Part shown: piece after piece, positions 4,921 through 59,193 of the stretch
Position numbering within the stretch: the first letter of the stretch is position 1
How the letters are laid out: the number at the start of each line of letters is the position of its first letter
IMG/VR virus record: IMGVR_UViG_2930438282_000003
Coordinates: 46,358-110,357 of that record
Source of the DNA: a virus
Lineage: Duplodnaviria; Caudoviricetes
Strand: one strand, 5' to 3'
DNA: 64,000 bases
Translations under genes and position numbers: made by a program
The notes under the pieces: model-generated
What the model was told of the DNA's origin: nothing
Databases searched by the model: none
Seen by the model: only the letters and a program-made list of their open reading frames with translations

Positions 4921-4942
4921 CGCGCATACGCGAAACGGTGGA

Positions 4943-4986
4943 CGCTCACCCCCTGAAGCTGATGTCCTAGCTTCAGGGGGTGAGCG
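4943..4986. terminator. Perfect 18-bp inverted repeat (terminator-like)
   Basis: CGCTCACCCCCTGAAGCT / AGCTTCAGGGGGTGAGCG with an 8-nt loop, directly after the head operon. Confidence 0.75.
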
Positions 4987-5496
4987 ATGTCAGACAGCTC
5001 CGAGAGCAGCCGCGATGCGAGGCCGCAGCAGCCCAGTCGCGTGCCGCGAAGCCGTGACGTGGCACCACGACCCGTGCCAGAGGACTTAAACACCGTCGCA
5101 GTGGCGCACCGCATGCCCACGGAAGCCATGCTCGCTGGTGCGCTCACTGCATACGTCGCAACGCCCCTGCTACAGGCATTCATCTCGCACTTGGGATCGG
5201 ACTCATACCAGACATTTCGCGGTTGGATGAGTTCCCTTTCGAAACGACTACGGCGACAGCCGCGCGAGCTTCAGGGAACTTGGCAGATCACGGTCTTCCT
5301 GGCCCGTAATCAGTACCGGGTCGAACTTCCCGGCGACTTGCCAGAGATCGCACACCAGGGACTGGTACGCGACTTTGAACGACTGATGGCAGAGAGCGAC
5401 GAGCAGTTCCCGTTGCGCATCGTCTGGAATACGGCCAAGCAGGAGTGGGTCAAGAAGCCCGAACCAGGTCCTCGACGACGTCCCGCCGGCCAATGA
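4987..5496 (+). CDS. Hypothetical cargo protein (lower GC, contains a TTA codon)
   Basis: 169-aa ORF with atypical codon usage. GAC TTA AAC near 5085. Confidence 0.55.
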   Translation: MSDSSESSRDARPQQPSRVPRSRDVAPRPVPEDLNTVAVAHRMPTEAMLAGALTAYVATPLLQAFISHLGSDSYQTFRGWMSSLSKRLRRQPRELQGTWQITVFLARNQYRVELPGDLPEIAHQGLVRDFERLMAESDEQFPLRIVWNTAKQEWVKKPEPGPRRRPAGQ

Positions 5497-5622
5497 AGAC
5501 ACGAAGTACATCAAGGGCCGGCAGCCGACCTGTGGCGCTCATCCCCCGAAACGGTGGACGCGCAGTAGCGGTGCCGCCCCTGGGACACGATGCTGCATCC
5601 CAGAGGCGACTACGCGCTGCCG

Positions 5623-5889
5623 CTACTTGTCGAGCCTGACGGGATCCTCCTCGTCCTGGGCCACCGCCGGGGTCCGGCGGAACACAGTGGCGAGGATGCC
5701 GATCGCGGCACTGCTCACGGTGGCGACTGCAGTCGCCGCGTCCGGCGTAACGGCGCCGGTCACGACGCTGACGCCCAGGGTGAGAGCCGCCGCCGCGACG
5801 CTCCCGGCGATGAGCCGATTGCGCTTTCGGAGCGTGAGGCTCGTCTCGTTCGTCTTGCGCTCAGTACGTCCAGCACTACGGTGGTGCAC
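5623..5889 (-). CDS. Small two-TM membrane protein (cargo)
   Basis: Two hydrophobic stretches. GAAAGG RBS upstream on the - strand. Confidence 0.5.
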   Translation of the reverse strand: MHHRSAGRTERKTNETSLTLRKRNRLIAGSVAAAALTLGVSVVTGAVTPDAATAVATVSSAAIGILATVFRRTPAVAQDEEDPVRLDK

Positions 5890-5925
5890 GGGTAGAGACC
5901 TTTCTGGTCCTCACGCATATGCCCG

Positions 5926-5953
5926 GCGGCCCCCTGTTCCAGCAGGGGGCCGC
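5926..5953. terminator. 11-bp inverted repeat
   Basis: GCGGCCCCCTG-ttccag-CAGGGGGCCGC. Confidence 0.5.
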
Positions 5954-6330
5954 AGCCATGCCGGGGCGCGGCTGCGGCCAAAGGCCTGTAGGAGCACCCC
6001 TGTTGGGTGCCACGAGAATTGCCTCACCCCGGTGACCGCAAAAGCAACAAACGTGGCCTCGGTCACAGTTGTTCAATCGACCGCTCCATTACCCGCGTCC
6101 GGGGGCTTACCGGCGTACGCTCACGACCTTTTCACGGCCTCCGACGTGCAGCGATGCGCGGCGACTTCGCCTACGCCATCACGAGATCGATGGCCAACAA
6201 ACCTACTTTCGACAGGTGTGCGACTGTGGGCCATGTCACGGCATCGGGGCGCGGAATAGCGCCCTCCGCCAACCCTCTTTTCCGCACTCCAACCGAAAGG
6301 ACGGGGGGACCACAACCGACACGGTGAGGC

Positions 6331-6370
6331 TAAGATCCTCGCTAGACGACTGCTGGTTATGGGCCGGGTC
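6331..6370 (+). promoter_or_regulatory. Late element 1: -10 TAAGAT + hairpin gact-GCTGGTTATGGGCCG-ggtc
   Basis: Repeated motif (core at 6352) upstream of the major capsid gene. Confidence 0.8.
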
Positions 6371-6399
6371 TTCCAGATCGATCGCTGGAGAACCTGCCC

Positions 6400-8055
6400 A
6401 TGGACGACTTCCAGATTCCCGAGGACATCCGCGCTCTCGACGACGCCCAACTCGCTGAGGCGCTCGCCGGCGCCACCCAGGCCTTCCAGGCCCTGTCGTC
6501 CCAGACCCGCATCGACGACTCGACGATGGGGCAGCTGCGTGCCCTGTCGACGTGCGTTCAGGACATCCGGCAGGAGCAGTCCGACCGTATCTCCGCCGCC
6601 GAGGCCGCCGCCGACGAGATCGAGCAGCTCGCCGCGCAGGTCCGTGGAGACGACCCGGCTGCCCACGTCGAGGAGACCCCGGCCGAGCCGACCACCGCCG
6701 CAGCCGAACCCGCGGCCGAGCCCGGCCCGGCCGCTTCCGAGCCGGCCAACGAGCCGCAGGCCACCGCGACCGCCTCCCTTGCCCGCCCCTCCCTCGACCT
6801 GTCCCTGGTGAGGCGCCGTCAGACACGCGTCCTCCCGGAGCCGCCCGCCCCGGGCACCGTCATCACCGCCGCCGTCGACGTCCCCGGCTACACGCCAGGC
6901 GCCGAACTCGACTTCAACCAGGTCACCGCGGGCGTCATCTCCCGCGCGAACGCCCTGAAGACCGCCGGTGGTGGCCTTGGACAGGTCATCAGCTACCACC
7001 ACCCGTACCCGGAGGAGCTGATCGTCACGGACTCCTCGTCGGCGCCCGAGGGCACCGAGGTGGCGCTCCGCGCGGCCGACCAGTCTCGCCTCCCCGAGAA
7101 GGACCTCGTGGCGTCCGGAGGCTGGTGCGCGCCGTCAGAGACCGTGTACGAGCTGACGTCGGTCGCCTGTCCCGACATGCTGTGGGACGCGCCGGAAATC
7201 CAGCTCGCCCGTGGCGGCCTGCGGTACTACAAGACGCCGTCGCTGGACGTCGCGGCGATGACGTTCGTGCACACCGAGGCCGACGACATCTCCGGTGCGA
7301 CGAAGCCGTGCTTCAAGATCCCGTGCCCGGACCCGGTGGAGATGCGCTGTGACGCGGTCGGTGTCTGCCTGGAGGCGGGCATCCTGACTCAGCGCCACTT
7401 CCCGGAGCTGGTCAACTGGTACCTGCGGAACGCGATGGTGGCGCACGAGATCCGCCTCCGCTCGGTCCTATTCTCGCAGGCCCTGGCCACCGCCACCCCC
7501 GTCACCCTCACGGAGACGTTCGGCGCGATCTCGGCGATCTTCGCGGCCGTCGCCCTACAGGCCGCCGACATGGTCGAGCGCCACTCGTTCTGTGACTCGA
7601 TCTCCCTGGAGGTCGTGTTCCCGTGGTGGTCGCGGAACCTGTTCCTCGCCGACCTGGCGCGCCGTAACGGCGTCAGCATCGACGAGGTCACCACCGCCGA
7701 CGTGCAGAGCGTATTCCGGCCGCTCGGGGTCCGCATCCAGTGGGCGCGGAACCTGATCGCCCCGAACGTCACCGGCGCGACGATGGGCCAGACCGCCCCG
7801 GCGACGGCCTGGCCTGCCGAGATCAAGTTCCTGATCTACCCGTCCGGCCAGCTGCAGATCGGCCGTGGCGAAGAGGTCAACCTCGGCGTCATCCACGACT
7901 CGACGAAGTTCTCCACCAATGACTACACCGCGCTGTTCTCGGAGGAGTGTGTCGGTCTCGTGGACCGCTCCGTCGACACCCGCGTCGTCACCGTTCCCGT
8001 CTGCCCGTCCGGTGAGACCGGCGCGCAGACCCTGATGGCCTGCCCCGCAGCCTGA
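6400..8055 (+). CDS. Major capsid protein with N-terminal scaffold-like domain
   Basis: Coiled-coil, Ala/Pro-rich N-terminus. LVASGGWCAPSETVY motif recalled from actinophage siphovirus capsids. Followed by a hairpin terminator. Confidence 0.85.
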   Translation: MDDFQIPEDIRALDDAQLAEALAGATQAFQALSSQTRIDDSTMGQLRALSTCVQDIRQEQSDRISAAEAAADEIEQLAAQVRGDDPAAHVEETPAEPTTAAAEPAAEPGPAASEPANEPQATATASLARPSLDLSLVRRRQTRVLPEPPAPGTVITAAVDVPGYTPGAELDFNQVTAGVISRANALKTAGGGLGQVISYHHPYPEELIVTDSSSAPEGTEVALRAADQSRLPEKDLVASGGWCAPSETVYELTSVACPDMLWDAPEIQLARGGLRYYKTPSLDVAAMTFVHTEADDISGATKPCFKIPCPDPVEMRCDAVGVCLEAGILTQRHFPELVNWYLRNAMVAHEIRLRSVLFSQALATATPVTLTETFGAISAIFAAVALQAADMVERHSFCDSISLEVVFPWWSRNLFLADLARRNGVSIDEVTTADVQSVFRPLGVRIQWARNLIAPNVTGATMGQTAPATAWPAEIKFLIYPSGQLQIGRGEEVNLGVIHDSTKFSTNDYTALFSEECVGLVDRSVDTRVVTVPVCPSGETGAQTLMACPAA

Positions 8056-8074
8056 CCCCTCGCCCGCCCCATCA

Positions 8075-8109
8075 CGTGCCGGGCCCGTTCCTGACGCGGG
8101 CCCGGCACG
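8075..8109 (+). terminator. Hairpin after the capsid gene
   Basis: CGTGCCGGGCCCG / CGGGCCCGGCACG 13-bp stem. Confidence 0.7.
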
Positions 8110-8137
8110 CCCCGATTTGAAGAGACGGAGGCGCGCA

Positions 8138-8980
8138 ATGGCTGCCGGCCTGCGGAAGTACGTCGAGGCCATCCCCGGCAGGCCTCTGCCGCACGGGATC
8201 CTCCTCAACACCTGTACTGACGTCCGTGACGTCACCGACGAACACGAGCTGCTCGGCATCGAATGGCTCGGCTTGGGCTGCTGCCCGGTCAACGTGTGGC
8301 GCGACCCGTGCACCGACGAGTCCCTCGGGGGCGAATCGCCGGGCCAGCCGCCGCAGAAGGAGTTCTGCAGGCCGACCGCTGAGCACGCCGACCCGATCAC
8401 GGTGTACGCGGGCGCCGAGTGCTCCACGATGGGCTGGACGTACGCGGAGGCCCGCACCCACGCCGAGGCGTCGTTGGAGCTCGGCGAGCAGGAAGCCGTC
8501 GAGGCCGGGTTCTGGACGAACACGTTGGCCATGACCGCGCAGGACCTCACCCCTGCGGCCGGGCCGGTGAACATCGCCCAGGGCGTGGCCGCGCTGGAGG
8601 GCTGCCTGGCCGAGCAGTACGGCGGCGTCGGCACACTCCACGTCCCGGCCGGCGCTGCCGCGGTGCTGGGCTGCTGCAACCTCGTCCACCGCGACGGGAA
8701 CGGCTCGTTGAGCACGCTCGCGGGGAACTGCGCGGTGATCGGCGCCGGATACAGCGCCATGAACACCGGCCCCGGGAACATCCCGGCCGATCCGGGCACG
8801 GCGTGGCTGTACATCACCGGGCCGGTCGTCGTGCGGCGCGGTCCGACCGTGACGATCCCGGACCGGCCGGGAGCGTCGGTGAACATCCGCACGAACGACC
8901 TCAGGGTTCTGGTCGAGCGGTCGTACGTCGTGGCCACGACCTGTGTGGTCTGCGCGATCCAGGTGGTGACTTGTCCATGA
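8138..8980 (+). CDS. Cys-rich virion protein (minor capsid/decoration candidate)
   Basis: ATG 8138 after GGAGG. Directly follows the capsid gene. High GC3. Confidence 0.7.
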   Translation: MAAGLRKYVEAIPGRPLPHGILLNTCTDVRDVTDEHELLGIEWLGLGCCPVNVWRDPCTDESLGGESPGQPPQKEFCRPTAEHADPITVYAGAECSTMGWTYAEARTHAEASLELGEQEAVEAGFWTNTLAMTAQDLTPAAGPVNIAQGVAALEGCLAEQYGGVGTLHVPAGAAAVLGCCNLVHRDGNGSLSTLAGNCAVIGAGYSAMNTGPGNIPADPGTAWLYITGPVVVRRGPTVTIPDRPGASVNIRTNDLRVLVERSYVVATTCVVCAIQVVTCP

Positions 8981-9411
8981 CAGATCTGATTCGTGTGCGG
9001 CCGATCCGGGCCCGCCTCGTCGACTTCGCCCGCTGGGCCGTCGCCCAGACCCCCAAGGTGCGCACCGTGTCGACGAACACTTTCGCCGTCCCACTGCACC
9101 TGTTCACCCACATGCCCGAGACGCTGCTGATCGACTCCATCGTCGACGGCCACCGCTACATCAGCCCCGACGAAGACCAGGAGTCCGCCCAGCCGGAACC
9201 GGCGACGATCCCCGGCCCGGACTCCACGCCGCTGCCACCGCCGGACTTCGCGCCCCTCGAGGACGCCCCCACCGACTACGGCGGCAGCGACCCGGACGAC
9301 GAGCTGGCCGAGGAGTCCGGCGGTCGGTACGCGTGCGGCGACTGCCCGCGCGACTTCTCCACGAAGCGGGGGCGGGACCTGCACCGCCGCCAGGCACACC
9401 GGGAGGATTGA
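8977..9411 (+). CDS. Hypothetical protein with C-terminal C2H2-like zinc finger
   Basis: ATGA overlap. CGDCPRDFSTKRGRDLHRRQAH. Confidence 0.7.
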   Translation: MTDLIRVRPIRARLVDFARWAVAQTPKVRTVSTNTFAVPLHLFTHMPETLLIDSIVDGHRYISPDEDQESAQPEPATIPGPDSTPLPPPDFAPLEDAPTDYGGSDPDDELAEESGGRYACGDCPRDFSTKRGRDLHRRQAHRED

Positions 9412-9415
9412 CGCC

Positions 9416-12400
9416 GTGGCCGTTGAGCCCATTCCGTGCAAGGACGGCGGAGGCGGCACGCCCGTCGACGTCACTACCTGCTGTTCTCCGTCGATCGCCT
9501 CAGCTCCCCTGTGCCGCGCGGATGGGACGGGCGTGCTCCTCGTCGTCCGCTCGGGCTGCGTCGAGTGCGGTCAGGCCGCCGAGGACCCGGCGGTCGTCGG
9601 CTGGATCGATCCGGCAAGCGGCGCGTTCACCGCAGGCCCGGCCCCCGCCGATGCCGGCCCGTGCGAGGCCGGATGCGTCGACACCGTCTGCCGCCAACTG
9701 TGCGACGACACCGATGGCGACGGCCAGGCCGACGCCACCTACTCGGAACTGTGGTGCATCCGCGCAGACGGCTCCGCCGAGCTGGTCCTCACCTACCAGG
9801 ACGACCCGTCCACGCCGTACACGCCCACGGCGCCCGTCGCCTGCACCTACGGCTGCCCCGAGTCCGAGACGGTGACCCTGTGCGACGCAAACGGCCCGTT
9901 CCTGCGCCGGTACAGCTTCCTCAACGGGACCGCCACGTACGAGGACGTCGCCCTCGACGGACAGACCCCGCACGTCGTCACCGGCACCGTCGGCGTCTGT
10001 CCGGCCGCCCCCGAGTGTGAGGCGCAGACGACCCCCGCTGCGACGCTCGGCCTGTGCCTCGCCGACGGCACACCCATCGCCGTGGTGGTCACCCGCGACT
10101 GCGACGGCGCCACGACCCAGGACGGATGGCTCAACCTCACCACCGGCGCCTACTCGGCCGGGGAACCACCGGCCGGAACGATGGCGTGCGGCAATCCGCG
10201 CAGCATCAGCACCACGGGCACCTTCTGCGACATCGACCCCAGCGGCGGGGTCCTCGGCCTGGTGCTGATCGAGTACACCTACGGCGCGGACGGCGCGGTC
10301 GCCGCGGTGCGCCTGGTCGACGCGACCACCGGCCAGACGTACACCCCGCAAGGCGAAGTGACGACGTGTCCGGCCGACGTCGAGCAACCCGAACGGGACC
10401 TCGTCCAGCTCTGCGACACCGCCGCCGACGGCACCGTGACCGCGTTCGTGCGGGACTACGCCCGCGACGAGAACGGCGCCATCACCGGCCACACGGACTA
10501 CTTGCTGGACGGCACCGCCTACACGCCGACCGGCTCTGTCGGCATCTGCCAGTCGGAGACGTGCGGGGCGTGCGAAACGCTGCTCCTGTGCGACGTCGAC
10601 GCCGCGTCCCCGTCCACCCTCGCCGGTACGGCCGCGTCCGGGACACTGGCCAACGGTGTCACCTGGACGTCCACGGGCCCTTCGGCCTTCCCGCCGGGCA
10701 CGCAGGGCGACGGCGCCGCCTGGTGGGGCCCGGCCCTCTTCCCCAACCCGAACGTCCCCCTGACAACGTTCACGTTCGACCAGCCCGTCACGGCCGAGTT
10801 CAGCGTCGTGATGGTCTATTCGACCGGCACCGGAGCCGGGGAGAACACCGTTCAGCTGCCGGCCGGGGCCGTCCCGCTCAGCCTGCCGCCCGGCTACACC
10901 TACAACCGGGCCACCGGCATCCTGCGCGCGGACGCCACCCTCACCGGCTGCACCACCCTCAACACCCCCACCCGCGCGGCCAGCGCACGTTTCCGCGTCA
11001 CGGGAGTGTCCTCCTTCGCGCTCAAGTACCTGGGCACAAGGACCCTCCTCGTCGACTGCCGGCGGTTCGGCAACTGGGTGTTCGGCGCCGTGGACGTCTC
11101 CATCGGCGGGCAGTTCCTGCGCACGGTGTGCCGGGACTGCACCGGGGCCGTCACCTCGACCACGGACACGCTCCTCGACGCGGCAACGCCGTATGCGCCG
11201 GTTGGCACGGTCGGACAGTGCCAGCCGGCACAGGCGTCCGGGGACACAGAGGTTGTCCAGCTGTGCGACCTCCAGTACAGCCCGGCCCCGCCGATCCCCA
11301 CCCCGTCGTCCTCGTTCACGCTCACCGGCTCGGTGCAGCTGCTCGGCGCGGCGCTGGTCTTCTCCGGCGGGAACCAGGCGGTAACTGGCGTCGCCACCAG
11401 GAGCGTCAGCGGCCTGGCGCCGACCGCCAGCTACGACCTGCTCTTCGACGCCGGGTGGAACGGGGTCGGCGCACCACCCGGAGCCGTGGATGCTATCTAC
11501 CGCGTGGAGGTCCTGGACGGCACGACCGTCCTGGCCACCCGGGACCGTAACCTCACCAACGGCAGCACCTCGGCCGGCCACGAGGGCATGGCCGCCCAGG
11601 ACCCGCTGTCGTTCGTCGCGCCAGCATCGGGCACGGTCACCGTGCGGTTCACGGACCTCACCACCGGCGGCGGCATCAACCGCGACCTGTACATCAACAC
11701 GCACACGGTTCAGACGTCCACACTGCAGCTCACCGCCGTGCCGTTCCTGCGTCTCCTCACCTTCCCGGCCGATGGCGGCGCCCCTACTGTCACGGACACC
11801 GGCCTCGACGGGACCACGCCGTACACCCCGGCCGGGACGGTCGGCGTGTGCCCGTCACCGGCAGAGGAGTCGCAGGAGCCCGTTCCGTGCCGGGACACCT
11901 CCAGCACCCTCCTGCGCGACACCGCCACAACCGACCTGATCACCGTCTTCGACCCGGCGAACCGAGCGAGTTCGGATGGGTGGGAGGTCGTCTCGTTTAC
12001 CGGCGCCAACCCGGGCAGTGGACCGCAGGCGGCAATGCCGTACCCGGCCCCGTATGGCACCCCGTTCGGGTATCCGGCGCTCGGCGCCCGCGCCGACCAG
12101 TCCGCGGGCACAGGCAGCGGCGGGCCTTGGAGCACCTACGACGCTGCCCCCGTGCGGTGGGTTCTCCGGAAGACGTTCAACGCCCCGGAGGACGGCGTCG
12201 CAGTCGCCCAGAGCGTGGGCTTCCGCGGCGACGGTGGCGCCCGCGTCCGGATCAACGGCATCGACGCCGGCATGTACGGGCAGTGGAACCAGCCCGCCAC
12301 CAGTGGTACCGCGCAGATCCCCGTGACGGCAGGACCGAACACGGTTGAGATCGAGGTCCGTGACGTCGGCGGGATCAACAACGTCGTAGGCCGCCTCGAC

Positions 12401-46575: not shown

Positions 46576-46746
46576 GACTCAACCGTCAGGGATCTCACTC
46601 AACTCTTGCCGAGCGGCGATGACGACCGGGCACGCGTCGCGGACTTCGATGTGGACGTAGCCGTAGTGGTGGCGTCCGAGAGTGCCATAGGCAGAAGCAC
46701 GCATGGCGTCGCTGGCTGAAGACGTGCAACCTTTCGGAGGGGACGG

Positions 46747-47082: not shown

Positions 47083-48036
47083 TCTATTCTCCGTCCCCCG
47101 CGTGACCGGGCGCACCGGGTTCCGCGGCTCAAGGTGGGGATCTCCGGACGCCGCCAGCCGGAGTGGCTACGAACTGCGATCTCAGCGGTGAAGAAGGCAG
47201 TATCTCACTACCAACTGGGGTACCACCGCGTCGGTGAGAGTCCTGGCTAGTGGCTCCTCCCGCAACCTTGACCCGGTGATCGGTTCCGTCGGTGGATTGA
47301 GTCTCAGCTTGGGGAGCGGACACCGGGATACGCGCCACTGCTCTTGTTTTTGGCGGATAGCGCGAGCCGTTGTATGGACGGCCAGCCATGCGGTGACTGC
47401 AACCGAGAACGCGGAGATCAGTACGGCATGCGAGCCCACCGTAGGGGCCGTGCAGCAGCGCCCACTCCCGTGTAGTTGCTTGAGTACCTGCTTCCGGATG
47501 AAGACTCGTTGAGAGCGGGCGGCCAGTGTCCGCAGTAGTCGGCTCTTTCCAGGTGAGGATTCGACCGGCGGCCGCTCCCAAAGAGATTGAATAAGTGCGG
47601 GTTCCGTCCTTGTCGCCGTCGTGTCGGAGCAGTGCACGCGGAGGTATAGGTGCGCTGGTCGGCAAGTCGGACGGGAGGCGGCGCGGGCAGTTCGAGGAAC
47701 TCGCCGAACCGGGGTGAAGTGCATCGAATGCACCGAGTCCCGCAGTGAGTGTCTCGGCGCTCCTATCGCCGGGGAACCGAACGACGTGTCGATCGGTGTT
47801 GTGGTGCAGGCTGAGCTGGTGGATACCCATCCTCCGAAAACCACGATCGAGAACCCACACTGAGCCCAGTAGCGTCATGAAGCGGTCCGCATAGTGGATG
47901 CACCGTCCACGTCGAGGTTCTGGGCCGTCTCACGAAGGGTGAGGGCAGGGTGGGTAAGTGGGGTTGATCAGGCGACCCCTCGTTCGTGCACGCACTCGTG
48001 CAAGTGGTCGATGCTGGCTGGTGCGGGTGTCGTGAG

Positions 48037-49707: not shown

Positions 49708-49773
49708 CAGGCGGTCCCCCTTGCTAGGACTTCGGAGCCTGACCCGACGGCCCCCCGCAGGTCTATCGCTCGT

Positions 49774-49797
49774 ATGTGTGGACGAATGTGTGGACGA
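49774..49797. repeat. 12-bp tandem repeat in the intergenic region
   Basis: ATGTGTGGACGA x2, upstream of the GT-C gene. Confidence 0.5.
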
Positions 49798-49819
49798 TGT
49801 GCCGGATGATAGGCCATTT

Positions 49820-50989: not shown

Positions 50990-51170
50990 TGAGAGGTAAA
51001 TCACTCCTCGTAACCTGTCACGATCTTGTGTCCTACACGTTTCCGTGCCGGATAGATGGCGATTTGCCCAAATCTTCTCGCAAGCCCTCACGAAAGACCG
51101 AAAAAAATCCGTACTATCTTCACTCGGTCGAAGGAAGTTTTAATCATCAACCGCCCGGGGGGGCACAGGA

Positions 51171-52784
51171 ATGACCGTCATGGACGGGCCCACGGTTGCG
51201 GACGGGGGCAGGGGGGCCGCCTCCCATCGCAGACTGAAGCGCGGGCAGCCCGCACGCAAGTGGAGGGGGCTGCTGCCGCAGCCGCCGGACAACGAGGAGA
51301 AGTTCTCCTACACAAGCCGCAACCTGTGGGTGCTCACCTGCTGCTCGATCATCAGCTTCTGCTGTCTGGTGGCCAGCCAGGTGGCCCTTGCCCAGTCATC
51401 CCCATGGCTCTGGGTCTACCTTCCGTTTCTGCTGTTCACGGTCGTGTACTACCTGGTCTCGCTCAAGGTGAACGGTTTCACCAAGAACTTCGACCTCGAG
51501 GCACACCGCGAGCTCGTGCGGAGCTGGCGGCCGCAGCGCTACCCGACCGTCGACGTGTTCCTGCCGGTGTGCGGCGAGCCGATCGAGGTGCTGCACAACA
51601 CCTGGACCCATGTGGCCCGGCTGCGTGACCGCTACCCCGGTGTGGTGACGCCGTACGTCCTCGACGACGCGGCCAACCCGCAACTCGCAGCGATGGCTGT
51701 GGACTTCGGCTTTGTGTACGGCACCCGCAGCAATCGGGGCTGGTTCAAGAAGGCTGGCAATCTGCACTTCGGGTTCCAGAATTCCGACGGCGATTACATC
51801 CTCATCCTGGATGCCGACTTCGCCCCCCGTGAGGACCTTCTGGAGGAACTCCTCCCGTACATGGAGAAGGACCCGGATGTCGGAATTGTGCAGAGTCCGC
51901 AATTCTTCCGGATTCTCGACTCTCAGAACTGGATCGAGCGCGGCGCGGGCGCGGTGCAGGAGCTCTTCTACCGCTCCGTCCAGGTCTCCCGGCAGAGCAA
52001 CGACGGCGCGATCTGTGTCGGCAGTTGCGCGATCTACCGGCGTGCCGCGTTGGAGACCAACGGCGGCACCACGCTGATCGAGCACTCCGAGGACGTCCAC
52101 ACCGGCTTCGACCTGCGGGGCCTGGGCTGGGACCTGCGCTATGTGCCGGTCGCGCTCTCCACCGGAGTCTGCCCGGACACCGCAGGTGCCTTCTTCAACC
52201 AGCAGTACCGCTGGTGCTCCGGGTCGATGTCCCTGCTAGGTAGCAAGAAGTTCTGGCAGGCCAACCTCCGACCGGAATCCCGTTTGTGCTATATGTCCGG
52301 GTTCTTCTACTACATCCACACGGCGCTGTTCACCCTCATCTCGCCTCTGATCCCGATCGTGCTGCTGTTGGCCCTGCCCCACATGTTGAAGATCGAGTAC
52401 ATGGGCCTGGTGCTGCCGAGCCTGATCTACACCACGCTGATCTTTCCGCTCTGGCACCGCAACCCGTACCGCCTGGAGGCCTGGGCGGCCCGGATGATGT
52501 ACGGCTGGGCGCACCTGTTCGCCATCTGGGACATCCTCCGCAAGAACCGCATGGGCTGGCAGCCGACCGGCTCCAGTGGCGCCAAGAAGAACAAGACCCG
52601 GCGCTTTTGGATCGGTATGACCGTCTGGGGCGGCGGCACGGCCGCCGTCTGGGTCGGCGCCGCGACCTGGCGCATGCTCACCATGAACCCCCTGGACTTC
52701 GCCCTAGTGCTGGCCTCCGGGCTCTTCTACGCCGTGGTCGTCGGCCGCGTTCTGGTGCAGCCCCGCAGCCGGGAAGGGGTGTGA
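51171..52784 (+). CDS. Processive GT2 glycan synthase (cellulose synthase-like)
   Basis: DVFLP..GEP, KAGNL, LDADF, QSPQ, SED and QQYRW motifs. TM helices. Confidence 0.9.
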   Translation: MTVMDGPTVADGGRGAASHRRLKRGQPARKWRGLLPQPPDNEEKFSYTSRNLWVLTCCSIISFCCLVASQVALAQSSPWLWVYLPFLLFTVVYYLVSLKVNGFTKNFDLEAHRELVRSWRPQRYPTVDVFLPVCGEPIEVLHNTWTHVARLRDRYPGVVTPYVLDDAANPQLAAMAVDFGFVYGTRSNRGWFKKAGNLHFGFQNSDGDYILILDADFAPREDLLEELLPYMEKDPDVGIVQSPQFFRILDSQNWIERGAGAVQELFYRSVQVSRQSNDGAICVGSCAIYRRAALETNGGTTLIEHSEDVHTGFDLRGLGWDLRYVPVALSTGVCPDTAGAFFNQQYRWCSGSMSLLGSKKFWQANLRPESRLCYMSGFFYYIHTALFTLISPLIPIVLLLALPHMLKIEYMGLVLPSLIYTTLIFPLWHRNPYRLEAWAARMMYGWAHLFAIWDILRKNRMGWQPTGSSGAKKNKTRRFWIGMTVWGGGTAAVWVGAATWRMLTMNPLDFALVLASGLFYAVVVGRVLVQPRSREGV

Positions 52785-53812
52785 TGCAGATGTCCGCCCA
52801 CCGTCCGAACGTGGTTTTGCGCCGCACCATGCCGCTCCTTGCCGTGCTTACCGCCGGCCTGATGCTGCTGACCGGCTGCAGTCTGACCGCTGGCTCCGGC
52901 AACTCTGCGGCCGAGCCCGGCATGACCTCCGGCGCCGACAAGGCGGAGCCGGTCACTCCGTACGACGTCACCCCGCTGATCAAGCCGAATGGCAAGTACA
53001 TCGGGGTCGCGCTGGAGGGCGTGCCCGAGTCGCTGAAAGCGGTCAGCCCGTACAAGGAGAAGATCGGCAAGCAGCCCAACGTCCTGGAGTTCTACTCGGC
53101 GTTCGGCGACGGCTTCGACACCAGCGGGGTCCGCCGCATCTACCAGACGGGAGCGCTCCCCTTCATCGCATGGGAACCTTTCAAGCCATCACTGAAGGCT
53201 ATCGCCGACGGTACACAGGACGCGTACATCAAGAAGTACGCGCGCGACCTCGTCCAACTCAATCTGCCCGTCGCCATCAGCTTCGGGCACGAGATGAATG
53301 GCGACTGGTACGCCTGGGGCCGCACCAAGGCCACCCCCGCCCAGTACGTGGCGGCTTGGCGGCACATACACGACCTGTTCCAGGACGCGGGCGCCACCAA
53401 CGTGATCTGGGTGTGGACGCCAAACGTCATCACCCCGATGCCGAACGTCGGTCTCAAGCAGTACTACCCCGGTGACGCGTACGTGGACTGGGCCGGGATG
53501 ATCGGCTACTACGCCCTCACCGGGCCACACACCTTCGACACCTTGTACGGCCCGACGATGGACCAGATCAGGACCTTCACCAAGAAGCCGATCTTCATCG
53601 CCGAGACGGCCGCCCAGGAGGGACAGCGCCGGCGGGCCGACGTCGACGACCTCTTCGACGGCGTCAAGGCTCACGACGATGTTCTCGGCTTCGTCTGGTT
53701 CAACATCCCCAAGCGTGCCGACTGGCGGATTGAGATCAGCCCGCTCGCTCTCGCGGAGTACCGCAAGCGTGCGACCGACCCAGGCTTCGGCTTCGACATC
53801 AGGAAGCAGTAG
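52784..53812 (+). CDS. GH26-family lipoprotein hydrolase
   Basis: LTGC lipobox. FGHEMNGDWY.W, YYPGDAYVDW and FIAET. Confidence 0.85.
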   Translation: MQMSAHRPNVVLRRTMPLLAVLTAGLMLLTGCSLTAGSGNSAAEPGMTSGADKAEPVTPYDVTPLIKPNGKYIGVALEGVPESLKAVSPYKEKIGKQPNVLEFYSAFGDGFDTSGVRRIYQTGALPFIAWEPFKPSLKAIADGTQDAYIKKYARDLVQLNLPVAISFGHEMNGDWYAWGRTKATPAQYVAAWRHIHDLFQDAGATNVIWVWTPNVITPMPNVGLKQYYPGDAYVDWAGMIGYYALTGPHTFDTLYGPTMDQIRTFTKKPIFIAETAAQEGQRRRADVDDLFDGVKAHDDVLGFVWFNIPKRADWRIEISPLALAEYRKRATDPGFGFDIRKQ

Positions 53813-55593
53813 TGAACGAGCAGACTGACTCCTGGTTCAGCCCGGCCAGCCCGCCGCCCCACTGGGACCCCGCGCAGGCCGACCCGAACCGCTACGCCGA
53901 CCCCTCGCTGCAGCAGGTCCAATACCAGCCGCCCGCCGACTTCCAGCACTACTACCAAGCCGCTCCGGACCAAACCCACGCACGCCCCCTGGCCACGGCA
54001 CCCGTGCCGACCGCCCCGCCTGCCGCAGTGCCTGGGACGGAGAGCGACCGGTACGAAGGCCAGTTCGGCAAGCCGTACAAAGAGGCATCGGCCTTTGAGA
54101 CGGCCCCGTACGAGATCCCCGAGACCCCCGAGACCGGCTGGTCCGCGGCCCCCAGCCGCCGACGCCGCTGGATCGGCCGCATCCTGCTGATCGGCGTGCT
54201 GGCCATGCAGGCACTGCTCTCCTTCGGCCTGAGCAGCGGCGCCAGTCCGGAGGAGGCCATCAACCTCGTCGTGGGCCGCCAGGAGTACGCCCACCTTGCA
54301 GACGGAACTGCCGTCACCACTGACCTCGTCGACCGCGTGCCGGGCTCGGCCTCGCTGTACCCGGTGCTGGCCGGTGCCGTCGACAAACTCGGTGGCCTTT
54401 CGGCGGTACGACTGCTCAGCCTGCTGTTCGCCCTGGCCGCGACGGCACTGCTGTACTCGCTGACACGCCGAATGTTCAACGAGCGCGTGGCCGCCTGCGC
54501 CGCCGCTGCGTACGCCGTCCTCCAGTCAACTATCGTCGTCGGTTACTACGCCTCGCCGGACGCACTCGCGCTCATGCTGGTCGCCCTTGCCGCGTGGATC
54601 GTCGTCTACACCGACCGGGCGAACGGGTTCGTCGTGCTGGTTGCGGCCCCGGTGGCCGCGCTCGCGGCTGCCGTGGACCATACCGCGGTGCTGGTCCTAC
54701 CCACGGTGTTGCTGCTGGCGGTGCACACGGCCTGGCCATACAAGGGCCCCGCCAAGGGTCTCTTGCGCGGCATCGTGCTCGGCGTCGGCATCGCCGCTCC
54801 GCTGCTGGTGACCGGTGCTTTCGGCGCGATCAAGGACAGCACGCTCACGCGCGGCCAGGGTGATGAGGGTGCCTGGGACATCCTGACCACCTCCGCACAG
54901 TGGAGCGGGCTGTTCCTGCTGCTTGCCTGCGGTGGAGCGGTTGCCTGGGTCAGGCGCGAACGGATGAACGAGGCCGTTGACATGGACAGCGTTCCTGGTT
55001 CGCCGCTGCGCCGTGCGGCGCTCGGCCTGACATTGTGCGCCACGGCTGCCCTGATCCCGCTGCTCCAGGCTCAGCTGCACACGTCGGAGGGCATGTTCCG
55101 GCATATCGCGTTCGGCCTGCTGCTTGCAGCCCCGCTCACCGGGCTCGGCATCACCCGCATGATCGGCGCCCATTTCCGGCACCCGCAACTGGGCATCCTT
55201 GCCTGGGTGTTGATGCTCGCACTGGGCATCTCCCAGTCGGGGCAGCGGTTCGAGAGCTGGCCCGACTCCAACAACCTGGCAGAGGTTCTGCGCCCCCACG
55301 TCAACGCGAGGGGCACCTACCTGTCGGAGGTGGAGGGCGTGCCTGAGTACTACCTGGGCTCGCGAACCAGCCCCGGCCAGTGGGTCTCCCTCGCTGACGG
55401 CCGCGTCGGTGACGTCACCAAGGGCCGCTACGGCGCGATCGTCCTCGACACCGTCACGTCCGGCGCACAGTCGGCCCGCGAGAAGGCCGTCACCCAGGCC
55501 GTTCGGATCGGCGGCCACTACCGCCTGATCGCGCAACTGCCCTACCGGGACAACGGCAAGCACCGCGTCTACCGGGTCTACGTCAAGCAGTAG
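53812..55593 (+). CDS. GT-C fold membrane protein, paralogue of 48037..49707 (degenerate catalytic loop)
   Basis: Multi-TM. LYPVL, RLLSL, WPDS and VPEYYL. ASPEEA in place of AFVDEG. Confidence 0.75.
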   Translation: MNEQTDSWFSPASPPPHWDPAQADPNRYADPSLQQVQYQPPADFQHYYQAAPDQTHARPLATAPVPTAPPAAVPGTESDRYEGQFGKPYKEASAFETAPYEIPETPETGWSAAPSRRRRWIGRILLIGVLAMQALLSFGLSSGASPEEAINLVVGRQEYAHLADGTAVTTDLVDRVPGSASLYPVLAGAVDKLGGLSAVRLLSLLFALAATALLYSLTRRMFNERVAACAAAAYAVLQSTIVVGYYASPDALALMLVALAAWIVVYTDRANGFVVLVAAPVAALAAAVDHTAVLVLPTVLLLAVHTAWPYKGPAKGLLRGIVLGVGIAAPLLVTGAFGAIKDSTLTRGQGDEGAWDILTTSAQWSGLFLLLACGGAVAWVRRERMNEAVDMDSVPGSPLRRAALGLTLCATAALIPLLQAQLHTSEGMFRHIAFGLLLAAPLTGLGITRMIGAHFRHPQLGILAWVLMLALGISQSGQRFESWPDSNNLAEVLRPHVNARGTYLSEVEGVPEYYLGSRTSPGQWVSLADGRVGDVTKGRYGAIVLDTVTSGAQSAREKAVTQAVRIGGHYRLIAQLPYRDNGKHRVYRVYVKQ

Positions 55594-55630
55594 ACCGTAG
55601 GGGTTCGTCTGCAAGGAGGTGCCGCACATC

Positions 55631-56947
55631 ATGCGGCTCACTGTCATCGGCACCGGCTATCTAGGTGCCACCCACGCCGCCTGTATGGCGGAGCTCGGCC
55701 ACGAAGTGCTCGGCGTCGATGTCGACCCCGACAAGGTGGCGGCGCTACGGGCAGGGCGTGTGCCCTTCCATGAGCCGGGTCTGCCCGAGCTGATCGCAAA
55801 GCACACTGCGACCGGACAGCTACGGTTCACGACCTCATACGAGGAGGCCGGTGCTTTCGGCGAGGTGCATTTCGTGTGTGTGGGCACTCCGCAGCTCAGG
55901 GACTCCATGGGCGCGGACCTTACGTACGTCGACACTGCCTTCGCGGCGATTGCGCGGCACGCCGAGCCCGACGCTCTACTGGTCGGCAAGTCCACCGTGC
56001 CAGTGGGGACGGCGGGGCGGCTAGCGGCCGCGTACGGCGATGTCGAGATCGCATGGAACCCTGAGTTCCTGCGCGAGGGATTCGCGGTCGACGACACACT
56101 GCGCCCGGACCGGTTGGTGTTCGGGGTTGAGTCCGACCGCGCCGAAACGATCCTTCGCAAAGTGTACGAACCTGTCCTCGCGTCCGGGACCCCGCTGGTG
56201 ACAGCCGACTTTCCGACCGCCGAGCTGGTCAAGACGGCCGCCAATGCCTTCCTCGCCACCAAAATCTCCTTCATCAATGCGATGGCGGAAGTGTGTGAGG
56301 CGGCAGGCGCCGACGTCTCAGTGCTAGCCCGCGCCATCGGCCATGACGAGCGGATTGGTGCGAAATTCCTGCGCGCCGGGATTGGCTTCGGCGGCGGCTG
56401 CCTACCCAAGGACATCCGCGCCTTCGCTGCACGTGCCGAGGAGCTGGGCACCGGCCGGTCGCTGACCTTCCTACGCGAGGTTGATGCCATCAACCTGCGA
56501 CGCCGTGAGCGGACCGTGGATCTGGCCCGCGAACTGTGTGCCGGCGATGTTCAAGGGAAGCGGGTCGCCGTGCTGGGCGCAGCTTTCAAGCCCGACTCGG
56601 ACGACATCCGCGACTCCCCGGCCCTGGACATCGCCTCTCGCCTCCACCTCCAAGGCGCGGAGGTCACCGTCTTCGACCCGCAGGCCATGGACAACGCCCG
56701 CAAGCACTACCCGACGTTGAGCTACGCACTCTCGGCCCCGGACGCGGTGCGGGGCGCCGACGTAGTGCTGCACCTGACCGAGTGGCCGCAGTTCGCGGCA
56801 CTAGACCCGGCCGCACTGATCGACCTCACCTACCGCCCCCGGATCATCGATGGCCGGGGCACGCTGGACGGCGCCCGTTGGGCCGCCGCCGGTTGGGACT
56901 TCCATGCCCTGGGCCGTCCGGCCCGGCCAAGACAGGAGAGACCGTGA
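55631..56947 (+). CDS. ugd: UDP-glucose 6-dehydrogenase
   Basis: GTGYLG, VGKSTVPVGT, WNPEFLREG, GFGGGCLPKD and FKPDSDDIRDSP. Confidence 0.92.
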   Translation: MRLTVIGTGYLGATHAACMAELGHEVLGVDVDPDKVAALRAGRVPFHEPGLPELIAKHTATGQLRFTTSYEEAGAFGEVHFVCVGTPQLRDSMGADLTYVDTAFAAIARHAEPDALLVGKSTVPVGTAGRLAAAYGDVEIAWNPEFLREGFAVDDTLRPDRLVFGVESDRAETILRKVYEPVLASGTPLVTADFPTAELVKTAANAFLATKISFINAMAEVCEAAGADVSVLARAIGHDERIGAKFLRAGIGFGGGCLPKDIRAFAARAEELGTGRSLTFLREVDAINLRRRERTVDLARELCAGDVQGKRVAVLGAAFKPDSDDIRDSPALDIASRLHLQGAEVTVFDPQAMDNARKHYPTLSYALSAPDAVRGADVVLHLTEWPQFAALDPAALIDLTYRPRIIDGRGTLDGARWAAAGWDFHALGRPARPRQERP

Positions 56948-57726
56948 ACGCCCTGGTACCGGACCACTTTCCCCCGTCCTGGGGAGAGGCGCCGCTGACG
57001 GTTGTCATGCCGACCTACAACGAGGTGGCGAACCTGCCGCGGATCACCGACCTCGTTCTGCGGCAACCGCTTCCCGGCCTGCATCTGAAGATCGTGGACG
57101 ATTCGAGCCCGGACGGCACAGGCGTGCTCGCCGAGCAGCTGGCCGAGAAGTACAACGACCTGGCCGGCTGGCGGCGGATGAGCGTGCTGCACAGGACCGC
57201 CAAAGATGGTCTGGGCCGGGCGTACACCGAGGGAATGCTGGCCGCGCTGGATGAGGGTGCCGAGTTCGTGGTCCAAATGGACGCCGACGGCAGCCACCCA
57301 GCCGATGTCATCCCCCAGATGCTGGGCACCGCGCTGTCCACCGGTGCCGGCTTCGTCGTGGGCAGTAGATATGTGGACGGCGGTTCCCTGGACGAGGAGT
57401 GGGGAAAGCACCGGCAACTGCTCTCCCGCTTCGCGAACCGCTACGCACGGACCGTTCTCGACACCAAGATTCGTGACATTACCGCTGGCTTCAACCTCTG
57501 GCGGGCAGAGACGTTGCGCGACGTCGACCTCAGAACGCTGGACAGCGCGGGCTACAGCTTCCAGGTGGAGCTGAAGTTTCTTGCGGCGCGGAATGGCCAC
57601 AACGGCGTGGAGATCCCGATCCGTTTCGAGGAGCGTACCGAGGGTGTATCCAAGATGAACCTCGCGACGCAAATCGAGTCGGCACTGGTGCCGTTGCGAC
57701 TGCGGCTGCGAAACCGACGGGGCTGA
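56944..57726 (+). CDS. Polyprenol-phosphate glycosyltransferase (Ppm1/GtrB-like GT2)
   Basis: MPTYNE, VDDSSPDGTG, QMDADGSH, GSRY and YSFQVE. Confidence 0.88.
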   Translation: MNALVPDHFPPSWGEAPLTVVMPTYNEVANLPRITDLVLRQPLPGLHLKIVDDSSPDGTGVLAEQLAEKYNDLAGWRRMSVLHRTAKDGLGRAYTEGMLAALDEGAEFVVQMDADGSHPADVIPQMLGTALSTGAGFVVGSRYVDGGSLDEEWGKHRQLLSRFANRYARTVLDTKIRDITAGFNLWRAETLRDVDLRTLDSAGYSFQVELKFLAARNGHNGVEIPIRFEERTEGVSKMNLATQIESALVPLRLRLRNRRG

Positions 57727-57734
57727 GCGGGACG

Positions 57735-58241
57735 GTGGGTGGACGTCATGCGCTTCCCACGCGGTCGGGGAAGCTGTCCCGTGAGATCGCAAAGTTCGGC
57801 CTGGTGGGGGCATCGGGGTTCGTGGTCAATCTGGGAGTCTTCAACCTCGTCAGAGCCGCCACCGACTGGCAGCCTGTCCGGGCGAGCGTCCTAGCGACGG
57901 CTGTCGCGATCATGACCAATTATCTCGGCCTGCGCTACTTCACCTACCGGCATCACACTCGGGATGACCGGGCCGACCGGAAGAAGGAGTTGGGGCTCTT
58001 CCTCTTCTTCAGTGCAGTCGGTCTGGTCATCGAGAACGGGATCCTCTATGTGATCACCTACGGATTTGGCTGGGACGGCACGCTTGCCAACAACGCTGGC
58101 AAGTTCATCGGCATCGGCATAGCGACTCTCTTCCGCTTCTGGTCCTACCGGACGTGGGTCTTTGCCGCATCTGCCTCCGCTACCCGGTTGCCGGAGCCAG
58201 CGCCTGTGCCTCTTCCCGGTGGAGGGTCTGGCGTAAGGTGA
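57735..58241 (+). CDS. GtrA-family flippase-like membrane protein
   Basis: KFGLVG...NY...FTY...FRFWSYRTWVF. Confidence 0.88.
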   Translation: MGGRHALPTRSGKLSREIAKFGLVGASGFVVNLGVFNLVRAATDWQPVRASVLATAVAIMTNYLGLRYFTYRHHTRDDRADRKKELGLFLFFSAVGLVIENGILYVITYGFGWDGTLANNAGKFIGIGIATLFRFWSYRTWVFAASASATRLPEPAPVPLPGGGSGVR

Positions 58242-58345
58242 ACTCGGTCAGATCGTCACTAACCTTGAAGACCGACGTGTTCGGCTATGGCCTCTTTCTA
58301 AGCAGGCGACTTGCACGTGTCAGTGGATATTTCCTTGTGTGATGC

Positions 58346-58810
58346 TCAGACCCCGATCACGATTTTCTCGATCACTCGGCCAAGCTCGCTGTCATCTACG
58401 TTTTTAGACAGGTGCACGGTCGCCTTGACGGTCGGAATCCTGAACTGGACGCCAGAAGCCGATGTGTCGACGAGGACAGCGTTCTCTCGAACTTCGAGCG
58501 ACAGTTGCTCCCAGGTGATTATCCCGGAGAATTCGAGAGCGAATCCTTTTTCACACTCCTCGGCGAGACCGGGGACCTCGACCAGTCGATGCGGATGCAC
58601 GGCCAGCCAGTGGCACGCCCAGTCGGGTTCATCACCGAAGGTGACTTCTACCAGCCCGAAGTCGAGCCTCAGATAGCGGTGTTTGCTGCCATGCAACTGC
58701 CGCACATGGGCTCCAAGACGTTCCTCAACGTCCTCTAGCAACGACCCGGCACCTACACCCAGGAATCTCCCGGTTACGAGGGCACGCGAGATATCTTCCC
58801 TACCGAACAT
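58346..58810 (-). CDS. Hypothetical protein, orphan immunity-like
   Basis: Lower GC. LRLDFGLVEVTF motif. Upstream decayed ORF on the same strand. Confidence 0.5.
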   Translation of the reverse strand: MFGREDISRALVTGRFLGVGAGSLLEDVEERLGAHVRQLHGSKHRYLRLDFGLVEVTFGDEPDWACHWLAVHPHRLVEVPGLAEECEKGFALEFSGIITWEQLSLEVRENAVLVDTSASGVQFRIPTVKATVHLSKNVDDSELGRVIEKIVIGV

Positions 58811-59154
58811 GCAATCACCCCAGCGCTTTCAGGGCCCGGATCCCGCCTTCTCGAGAGGGGTGTTCATGATTTCATCGCTTGGGTCGCCTTGGCGATGAAG
58901 TTGGCTCGCAGCGCAGGGCTGACCTTGATCGCCTCGATTGTGGCGCCGATTTCGGCCTGAGTGGTGAGACCCGCCGTCACGTTGCTGGCCTGACCCGCTT
59001 GACCTTCTTCTCTACCTTCAGCAGGAGAGTCGTCAGCATCGGATTGGTCAAGTCGTGTACGCGTCCCTCGCGTGACACGACTCGACACGCGGCGCGATCG
59101 CCCAACTCCCTCGCTGGCCAGCTCATGTAGTCAGCCGTGGACAGTGCGGAAAGC

Positions 59155-59193
59155 TAGACTCTCTCGAAGCCGCTGGTTCTGGGCCGGGCGAGA
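59155..59193 (+). promoter_or_regulatory. Late element 9: -10 TAGACT + gcc-GCTGGTTCTGGGCCG-ggc
   Basis: Core at 59172, upstream of the lysis genes. Confidence 0.8.

Follow-up and report, generated by a model that had tools for sequence, protein, structure and literature searches.

Cargo genes of a temperate Streptomyces siphovirus lie mostly in spacers before a repeated late-module element

We analyzed a 64,000-nucleotide (nt) stretch of viral DNA (bases 46358-110357 of the 110,357-base IMG/VR provirus record IMGVR_UViG_2930438282_000003; GC content ~70%), hereafter the window, which is the late half of a temperate Streptomyces siphovirus resembling phage TurkishDelight (TD), in provirus form. 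The late genes of this virus are interrupted by six blocks of accessory DNA (cargo), each of which begins at the stop codon of a backbone gene and extends as far as the hexamer or core of a short repeated element that heads the following late module. Here we document the anatomy of this element, its conservation at orthologous sites, the confinement of most cargo to the spacers in front of it, and the boundaries of that cargo at the nucleotide level. In the best reading of this pattern, which we consider probable, the spacers are slots of the moron type, each located ahead of an autonomous promoter of the next module, the promoter activity being predicted from a -10-type box.

To measure conservation depth, all window open reading frames (ORFs) of at least 50 amino acids were compared by tblastn with nine relatives, namely TD and eight IMG/VR loci (G001 and G003-G009), which together with the window make up ten genomes. 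Depth fell to 0-1 at 4879-6351, 22491-24255, 28385-29159, 34658-37969, 40328-43002, and 44254-59185, a total of 24,932 bases, in line with the roughly 25 kb given in the initial annotation. The right end of every low-depth block lies at most 55 nt from an element, and at the element depth recovers to 7-9 for the first five blocks and to ~4 for the last. This profile agrees with the six cargo blocks first proposed, the ends of which had been placed 1-5 nt before hexamers at 6331, 24259, 29195, 37985, 43002, and 59155. It had also been proposed that virion genes resume after each element, which is the case for five blocks, while the last is followed by the lysis amidase (Amidase_2). The GC content of the blocks is 0.594-0.686, as compared to 0.672-0.716 in seven backbone genes. 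The blocks are:

Cargo block 1: 4921-6330; small ORFs, GC 0.646, depth 0-1
Cargo block 2: 22587-24258, ORFs on both strands; GC 0.669, depth 0
Cargo block 3: 28373-29194; GC 0.594, depth ~1
Cargo block 4a: 34658-36812, plus strand; NTP_transferase gene 34858-35811 (Pfam, E 2.7e-30) and GNAT acetyltransferase gene 36170-36751 (E 3.1e-26)
Cargo block 4b: 36813-37987, plus strand; IS630-type insertion sequence of 1175 bases with a DDE_3 transposase (Pfam, E 1.5e-17)
Cargo block 5: 40331-43001; GH26 mannanase and mannanase galactose-binding domain (Pfam, E 9e-61 and 3e-82)
Cargo block 6: 44281-59154, both strands; 14.9-kb glycan island, GC 0.653, depth 0

Three further slots, at 19366, 30050, and 39558, are empty, as had been noted, with the upstream ORFs stopping 19-25 nt before the core. 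In TD, slots are empty where the window carries cargo, and the relatives hold different cargo or none in the same slots.

The repeated element and the modules it heads

The sequence GCTGGTTNTGGGCCGRG is present in ten exact copies in the window, all on the plus strand (at 6352, 19366, 24281, 24319, 29214, 30050, 38000, 39558, 43020, and 59172), where 0.19 copies are expected from shuffled sequences and none of 100 shuffles reached ten; the other 46 kb of the record contain no copy of it. Our analysis resolved the element into three parts: a TANNNT hexamer, an invariant 21-nt core (GCCGCTGGTTNTGGGCCGGGC), and a leader of ~28 nt that carries the Shine-Dalgarno site before the start codon. The ten cores of the window are arranged as follows, elements 3 and 4 being a tandem pair:

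Element 1: 6331-6399, plus strand; hexamer TAAGAT at 6331, core 6349-6369; followed by the major capsid gene from 6400
Element 2: 19363-19411, plus strand; core 19363-19383; empty slot; followed by a fibre-like gene of 962 amino acids, 19412-22300
Elements 3 and 4: 24259-24361, plus strand; hexamer TAGAAT, tandem cores 24278-24298 and 24316-24336; followed by the major tail protein gene from 24362
Element 5: 29195-29258, plus strand; hexamer TACTCT, core 29211-29231; followed by the tail assembly chaperone gene
Element 6: 30035-30095, plus strand; hexamer TAGTCT, core 30047-30067; empty slot; followed by the tape measure gene 30096-33341
Element 7: 37985-38044, plus strand; hexamer TAACCT, core 37997-38017; followed by a minor tail protein gene 38045-39085
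Element 8: 39539-39604, plus strand; hexamer TACCCT, core 39555-39575; empty slot; followed by a tail-fibre-assembly-like gene 39605-40330 (PHROG 863, E 4.9e-39)
Element 9: 43002-43067, plus strand; hexamer TAGACT, core 43017-43037; followed by a fibre gene ~43068-43904
Element 10: 59155-59218, plus strand; hexamer TAGACT, core 59169-59189; followed by the endolysin amidase gene ~59219-60313 (Pfam Amidase_2)

Alignment of 86 sites from the ten genomes showed near-maximal information at positions -3 to +17, with the exception of a free N at +7, and a Shine-Dalgarno peak at +33 to +38. Information is ~0 from -60 to -20, nothing is conserved upstream of the hexamer, to which a diffuse AT signal corresponds, and there is no conserved -35 box in the 86-site alignment. 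This bears out the earlier proposal that the conserved information lies from the -10 box downstream. In a larger set of 247 distinct sites from the window, TD, and IMG/VR loci, 183 have a TANNNT ending 6-12 nt ahead of the core, as compared to 0.8% of random places (an enrichment of ~90-fold). The start codon, which could be called in 218 of the 247 sites, lies 18-48 nt past the core, with a mode of 28 nt.

The element had been described as a -10 box plus a hairpin. The first half of this description stands, whereas an internal hairpin in the core was rejected: its minimum free energy is -5.3 kcal/mol (z = +0.97), and 172 of 200 shuffles fold as well or better. Folds of the whole leader are slightly more stable than those of controls (mean z -0.75 vs -0.18), and in 70-80% of the minimum-energy folds the 3′ half of the core pairs with sequence ahead of the start codon. 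A reading of the core as a sigma-54-like or bipartite -35/-10 promoter, judged by eye, was dropped because the conservation forms one contiguous block. TANNNT, with A at position 2 and T at position 6, is the -10 pattern of actinobacterial housekeeping-sigma promoters. From its sequence, the hexamer is promoter-like as a -10 box only and may fire as a promoter, and the core may form the 5′ end of the mRNA and be recognized by a factor. One RNA contig bears on this point. In run X17, a 570-nt RNA contig from a related prophage of another organism (~86% identical) spans 43026-43596, in the fibre gene, and has one end at 43026, inside the core; unlike it, a DNA contig of run X3 extends upstream to 43002. 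This RNA contig end, observed in one run, hints weakly that a transcript may begin at the core.

The genes headed by the element at 19412, 24362, 38045, 39605, and 43068 encode proteins with Cys-rich N-termini (CC, CxC, and CGCGG-type runs within the first 15 residues), a feature also observed at the orthologous fibre, f7, and minor-tail genes of relatives.

The element is conserved at orthologous sites. TD (NC_073473.1, 93.6 kb, temperate) is syntenic with the window backbone, the common order being portal, MuF/protease fusion, major capsid, major tail protein, chaperone, tape measure, minor tail proteins, and fibre-region genes; the gene past the lysin is also matched between the two. In TD, the element stands before the genes for the capsid, the major tail protein (tandem pair), the chaperone, the tape measure (tandem pair), the minor tail protein gp30, gp32, and the tailspike gp33. 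All nine copies of the complete TD genome fall within 12.9-30.5 kb, and none lies near the repressor/cro genes at 47-48 kb. The same genes are headed by the element in the eight fetched proviruses. The site before the capsid gene is orthologous in all ten genomes, and the tandem core pair before the major tail protein is shared by the window, TD, G004, G005, and G008. G001 has a like arrangement to that of element 10, with an element before the amidase, 395 bases past its fibre gene. Orthologous sites retain their own core variants, such as ACC...GGGT at the capsid gene, CCGAC/CCGTC at some tape-measure genes, and ...CCGAGC in second tail-protein copies. In addition, a core-headed fibre module occurs one to three times per genome at varying positions, and in four of the ten genomes (the window, G001, G005, and G009) it precedes the tail-protein element, with cores on both sides. 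It should be noted that the annotated start of TD gp33 (30557) falls inside its core (30547-30567); an ATG ~24 nt past the core, preceded by the Shine-Dalgarno-like GAGAGG, looks like the likelier true start.

Regarding its wider distribution, an exact-pattern scan of IMG/VR found at least 115 stretches with the element. Ten IMG/VR records searched whole hold 3-10 copies each, on a single strand per record with the exception of one 1-mismatch hit in G009; the late regions compared here were taken from eight of these ten (all but G002 and G010). Among 50,697 cultured phage records, TD is the sole close relative, and a BLAST search with the core gave repeated hits in TD only, and not in R4 or phiJoe. 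The next-nearest cultured phages (YDN12, TP1604, and others) have 50-55% capsid identity. None of the fetched loci exceeds ~74% nucleotide identity to the window, and the minor tail protein has best relatives of just 57-58% identity among viral contigs. In the outgroup YDN12 (52% capsid identity), the same gene order is packed into ~19 kb, and a repeat scan of this genome did not find a multi-copy element of this kind. YDN12 does have a two-copy intergenic repeat (2375-2557 and 14611-14788; 61 nt at 82% and 43 nt at 98% identity), located after an oddly placed tape measure gene and before gp21, which is unrelated to the late-module element. Literature searches on TD and on late promoters or repeat elements of Streptomyces phages yielded no paper that mentions TD and no description of the element, which is apparently undescribed so far. 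A gathering-threshold Rfam scan of the window matched no family, and ARAGORN found no tRNA genes in it.

Content, confinement, and boundaries of the cargo

The small ORFs of blocks 1-3 have no Pfam or PHROG match; one of them, the minus-strand ORF 5623-5889 of block 1, also occurs in the corresponding slot of G001. The NTP_transferase of block 4 is a sugar nucleotidyltransferase. Block 5 encodes the mannanase, whose GH26 catalytic domain (40831-41829) and galactose-binding domain (41508-42824) lie in overlapping frames (40831-42827), and these two ORFs may be one frameshifted gene. Block 6 has ~12 genes, with Pfam matches to GH26, two PMT_2, GH12 with a ricin lectin domain, two GT2, a GH26-like domain, UDP-glucose dehydrogenase, and GtrA. 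It has no internal element, the sole near match being a 4-mismatch hit inside a coding region. The cargo thus consists mostly of predicted sugar-modifying enzymes, which points to surface or virion glycan modification as what the lineage may gain from the slots.

Block 4 is a mosaic assembled recently from three or more pieces of separate origin, because the NTP_transferase and GNAT genes are found on unlinked contigs elsewhere: the pieces 34669-35996 and 36121-36759 are ~90-97% identical to separate contigs from other organisms (runs X2, X3, and X4). The third piece, block 4b, has the DDE_3 transposase, 25-bp terminal inverted repeats, and flanking TA target duplication of the IS630 family. 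It agrees with IS630/Tc1-type elements in these features and in having copies in other genomes, and we noted no difference from them. Contigs of runs X2 and X3 match exactly 36813-37987 and have unlike flanks, which fixes the limits of the insertion sequence (IS). The TA at its right end also belongs to the hexamer TAACCT; that is, a TA-targeting IS landed in a -10-type box and rebuilt TAACCT. The older cargo to its left likewise ended at the TAACCT hexamer. The TA of a -10 hexamer is a remarkable target in a genome of ~70% GC. One sequencing run contained the queried stretch in full and is probably its source; the small stretches shared with many other runs correspond to the IS, to cargo genes, and to one related prophage.

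To assess the confinement of cargo, we considered all late-region segments of at least 300 bases with a depth of 1 or less, of which there are 34 in the ten genomes. Eight of them are variable domains within large conserved ORFs (MuF, tape measure, and giant repeat proteins). The remaining 26 are intergenic accessory segments, and 20 of these (40,232 of 48,524 bases) end at most 120 nt from an element. Given that 72 of 181 gene junctions bear an element, this corresponds to a binomial p of 1.3e-4, where the junction counts use crude gene calls based on GC content at third codon positions and some element-free junctions are artefacts of missed genes. The median junction gap is 220 nt with an element (n = 72) and 15 nt without one (n = 109).

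Two junctions bear the element in some genomes only, namely the one after the tape measure gene, before the adjoining minor tail gene, and the one separating the two minor tail genes. In genomes without the element at these junctions, the genes abut or overlap (gaps of -1 to 39 nt, with one of 229 nt), and cargo of 1.3-3.3 kb is present there only where the genome has the element.

Between the capsid module and element 2, the window carries three huge ORFs (9416-19340; 1876, 936, and ~500 amino acids) composed of repeated Cys-containing units. The 1876-amino acid ORF has no Pfam match, and the 936-amino acid ORF matches only PHROG 18824, a family of unknown function (E 4e-105). Homologs of these ORFs are present in nine of the ten genomes, with variable internal domains.

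Closely related sequences place the boundaries of cargo at the nucleotide level. A prophage ~87% identical to the window (runs X3 and X4) matches 39312-40666 and 43002-43737, with 510 other letters in place of the window's 2335 bases between 40666 and 43002, and its match to the window starts again at 43002, where the hexamer TAGACT begins. G009 and L122 are 98% identical past the core, with 1.3 kb of cargo in G009 and an empty slot in L122; similarly, G009 and L041 are 98.6% identical, and their tail-protein slot measures ~1 kb in L041 vs 63 nt in G009. Pairs with an identity of 84% or more gave 39 distinct left ends of homology. Ten of these fall between -47 and 0 relative to the GCTGG of the core (-47, -44, -39, -29, -23, -6, -5, -5, -4, and 0), a span that makes up 3.1% of the sequence. 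Further boundaries are at -18 (the joint at 43002) and ~-13 (the IS right end at 37987). Of 44 right ends of homology, five lie nearby, at -27 to -68, and none at the 3′ edge of the core. Joints with short sides (18-24 nt) in run contigs were set aside as matches due to chance or repeats. Breakpoints thus gather within a 50-nt span bounded by the core and do not share a single nucleotide.

Explanations for the arrangement

In the reading that we favor, the structural and lysis region would be not one operon but a chain of about nine expression modules, each headed by the hexamer and, 6-12 nt on, by the core, where transcription from the hexamer would start. Since nothing is conserved upstream of the hexamer, the short spacer would be the only late DNA into which an insertion could go without damaging a gene, separating coupled genes, or destroying a start signal. 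This permissive spacer would extend from the stop codon or terminator hairpin of the previous module to the hexamer, a distance of 13-100 nt when empty. Foreign DNA would arrive by illegitimate recombination, by transposition (as for the IS630-type element), or by homologous exchange through the flanking backbone, and would survive mainly in the spacers, piling up to 24.9 kb. We infer that selection, rather than targeting, lies behind the pattern.

Hairpins are consistent with this organization. At two of the six occupied slots, strong hairpins lie directly past the backbone gene: a perfect 19-bp hairpin just past the stop of gene f8 at slot 1 (z = -6.5), and a long hairpin at 40325-40424, with which block 5 opens (z = -5.8); slot 6 has a 10-bp GC stem. 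Hairpins after backbone genes, together with cargo on the opposite strand, fit separate transcription units. A perfect 16-bp GC-rich hairpin is also found at 60935-60975, just past the last gene of the lysis cassette (z = -4.2 in a 100-nt stretch), and is probably the late-region terminator; past it, no sequence is common to the relatives until ~63.5 kb.

The observation of cargo in front of the element is accurate and statistically solid, and the main inference drawn from it is well supported as comparative anatomy. With respect to the interpretation in the initial annotation, the idea of slots before a conserved element is supported, while the exclusivity of the slots and the alternative of attC-like capture are not.

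Besides the crude gene calls behind the junction counts, several points weigh against our reading. First, six of the 26 intergenic accessory segments are not at elements, so the confinement of variable genes to the slots applies to most segments only. Five of these six are in the variable head-decoration stretch between the capsid and tail genes (TD, G003, G007, and G008). The sixth is the following gene, which coincides with a seventh unshared block of the window, 26589-27392, likewise without an element:

HNH-endonuclease-like gene: 26582-27319, minus strand; 246 amino acids, between two backbone genes with no element downstream, depth 1 or less

This gene matches PHROG endonuclease/HNH families (E 5e-11 and 1.4e-10), and its homolog is an 830-base indel between the close relatives L098 and L099. 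Moreover, an insertion of ~17 kb near the portal gene has no element. Second, the relatives were chosen by the presence of the motif itself. Third, 64 of the 247 sites have no TANNNT at the expected spacing, nine of which are the downstream member of a tandem pair. Fourth, the hexamer is parted from the core in some genomes by a ~29-nt hairpin or by a second core; in such interrupted sites the hexamer can be ~36 nt from the core, and the core-to-start spacing is unchanged. The constant core-to-start distance is easier to reconcile with a role at the RNA level than with a part of a promoter only, which suggests that the core may act with the translation start or at the RNA level. Finally, an empty spacer is only 13-100 nt long, and clustering of breakpoints is thus expected under any gene-preserving model and does not by itself prove selection.

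The ~17-kb insertion lies upstream of the window and is bracketed by a 1042-base direct repeat (record positions 26816-27857 and 44870-45910, 94.6% identical) comprising a gp10-like gene and the portal N-terminus. It contains an IS4-type transposase and ORFs of 1399 and 2316 amino acids, and one intact portal copy is left. Elsewhere in the record, 5322-9665 (minus strand) encodes a 1448-amino acid protein with caspase (Peptidase_C14), STAND/AAA, and FtsK/SpoIIIE domains that looks like a defence protein, and 14703-17813 encodes a C-5 DNA methylase split by an intein (Hint and LAGLIDADG domains).

An extension of our reading, which we consider rather unlikely, is that the core would be a dedicated late-module handle, the 5′ leader of all virion-gene transcripts read by a phage factor, and also a homology anchor, at the 5′ edge of which cargo with its hexamer and entire fibre modules would be exchanged, similar to that of the PeSL elements of T4-like phages. 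If so, structural modules would be plug-in units, and a siphovirus would be able to accommodate 15 kb of glycan genes from its tail fibre to its lysin.

In a related alternative, the core would be a portable homology patch, and recombination there would swap the upstream cargo together with the hexamer or move core-headed modules, so that the slots would be made by recombination as well as tolerated by selection. Five of the ten high-identity left boundaries lie at -6 to 0, that is, at the 5′ edge of the core, with an unrelated hexamer on the other side, and the variable number of fibre modules, core-flanked on both sides in four of ten genomes, would also be explained. Precedent exists in the PeSLs of T4-like phages, outlined in PMC2839356 and PMC4122927 as promoter and stem-loop cassettes with indels and replacements. 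However, five of the six window blocks bear an element on the right side only, none of the right ends of homology coincides with the core's 3′ edge, and each orthologous site retains its own core variants, which speaks against sites often exchanging sequence. A sharp boundary there would also follow simply from the core being the first constrained base. We regard this alternative as unlikely to be the main explanation, and the core may contribute as a recombination anchor.

The constant core-to-start distance raises the question of whether the element is not a promoter at all but a signal in longer transcripts, such as a translational activator site, a processing site, or a stabilizer, with cargo lodged in the few uncoupled gaps. 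The narrow distance (mode 28 nt), kept even when the hexamer is ~36 nt off or a second core intervenes, and the pairing of the core 3′ half with the pre-start region are consistent with this idea. It would leave unexplained the ~90-fold enrichment of TANNNT at the right spacing, and cargo of up to 15 kb with opposite-strand genes and strong hairpins would be polar in a single transcript. The small difference in leader-fold z scores from controls also speaks against it, as does, weakly, the X17 RNA contig end within the core. We consider it quite improbable that an RNA-level signal alone accounts for the element.

A third possibility is a stoperator-like roadblock, in which a repressor bound to the asymmetric core would halt read-through from lysogenic cargo into the virion and lysis genes. 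The site is indeed asymmetric and has one orientation in ten of ten window copies, as well as one strand per record in ten relatives apart from the single 1-mismatch hit, and an element stands directly between cargo and the lysis amidase. Such systems exist, as outlined for mycobacteriophages and Streptomyces phage R4 (PMC9283540 and PMC10276819). The absence of a copy at the immunity region nevertheless defeats this role: TD has none near its repressor/cro region or anywhere outside 12.9-30.5 kb. Repeated core hits were confined to TD among cultured phages, with none in R4 or phiJoe, and the fixed distance to the start codon would remain without a reason. A roadblock function is accordingly very improbable.

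Lastly, the initial annotation had offered integron-like capture, with the element serving as an attC-type site for cassette insertion by a dedicated recombinase. In favor of this, the repeated copies share one orientation, and a copy stands at the 3′ end of every cargo block; this mechanism is nonetheless extremely improbable and was rejected, because the core does not fold, no recombinase was found, the boundaries scatter from -47 to 0 with no common nucleotide, and the cargo is multi-gene, on both strands, and without internal elements, instead of single co-oriented cassettes. Empty slots, too, retain the element, and its distance from the backbone start codon is fixed. The recombinase search covered the 110,357-base record, which may be truncated ~3 kb past the lysis genes, and gave no match to the tyrosine recombinase family PF00589 (matched in 14 of 14 control genomes) or to Resolvase PF00239.

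The slots in front of putative module promoters, which we continue to favor, indicate where, and why, a temperate phage can hold foreign genes among its virion genes, a point documented here in about ten genomes at nucleotide resolution. As a practical rule, DNA placed between the stop codon of a module and the next hexamer should be tolerated, which would be useful for engineering Streptomyces phages; TD is the one cultured member with the element, next to dozens of proviruses.

Comparison with known systems

Morons are extra genes lodged between the late genes of lambdoid and other temperate phages. The window cargo resembles them in being absent from relatives, in its position between virion genes, and in its GC content (0.59-0.69 vs 0.67-0.72 in the backbone). 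Its glycan island (GtrA, GT2, and PMT_2) would plausibly serve the lysogen, as judged from the encoded domains. Scans with E. coli-type consensus sequences for moron-type signals of the cargo's own gave no promoters and fewer terminators than in shuffles, and were uninformative. The window differs from morons in that its slots are marked by a dedicated invariant element heading each downstream module, and in that its blocks reach 15 kb and ~12 genes.

The PeSLs of T4-like phages are a second parallel. According to the outlines in PMC2839356 and PMC4122927, they combine a sigma-70 promoter with a terminator stem-loop and flank small non-essential genes in hyperplastic regions, and recombination between copies is documented. 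The likeness is that a short promoter-bearing motif marks places of indels and replacements. The window element, in contrast, has no stem-loop of its own, occurs among the virion genes of temperate actinophages, and borders cargo on one side. Flanking on both sides, as with PeSLs, was seen for the fibre module only, and the hairpins present after some upstream genes are parted from the element by cargo, unlike the PeSL unit.

Stoperators of L5-type mycobacteriophages and Streptomyces phage R4 share with the element, as far as outlined in PMC9283540 and PMC10276819, the asymmetric multi-copy sites of 13-21 bp in short intergenic gaps and in one orientation. The element described here is absent from the early lytic promoter and the early region, and it comes with a -10 hexamer and keeps a fixed distance to the start codon.

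Finally, the start-associated sequences of Cluster K phages are 13 bp long, include the ribosome-binding site, and lie a few bases before the start. Like the element, they are conserved actinophage sequences that precede the start codons of some genes at a short, fixed distance. The window core differs in ending 18-34 nt before the start, apart from the Shine-Dalgarno site, and in heading late modules only. Taken together, the pattern is clearly a well-marked variant of the known behaviour of morons and hyperplastic sites.

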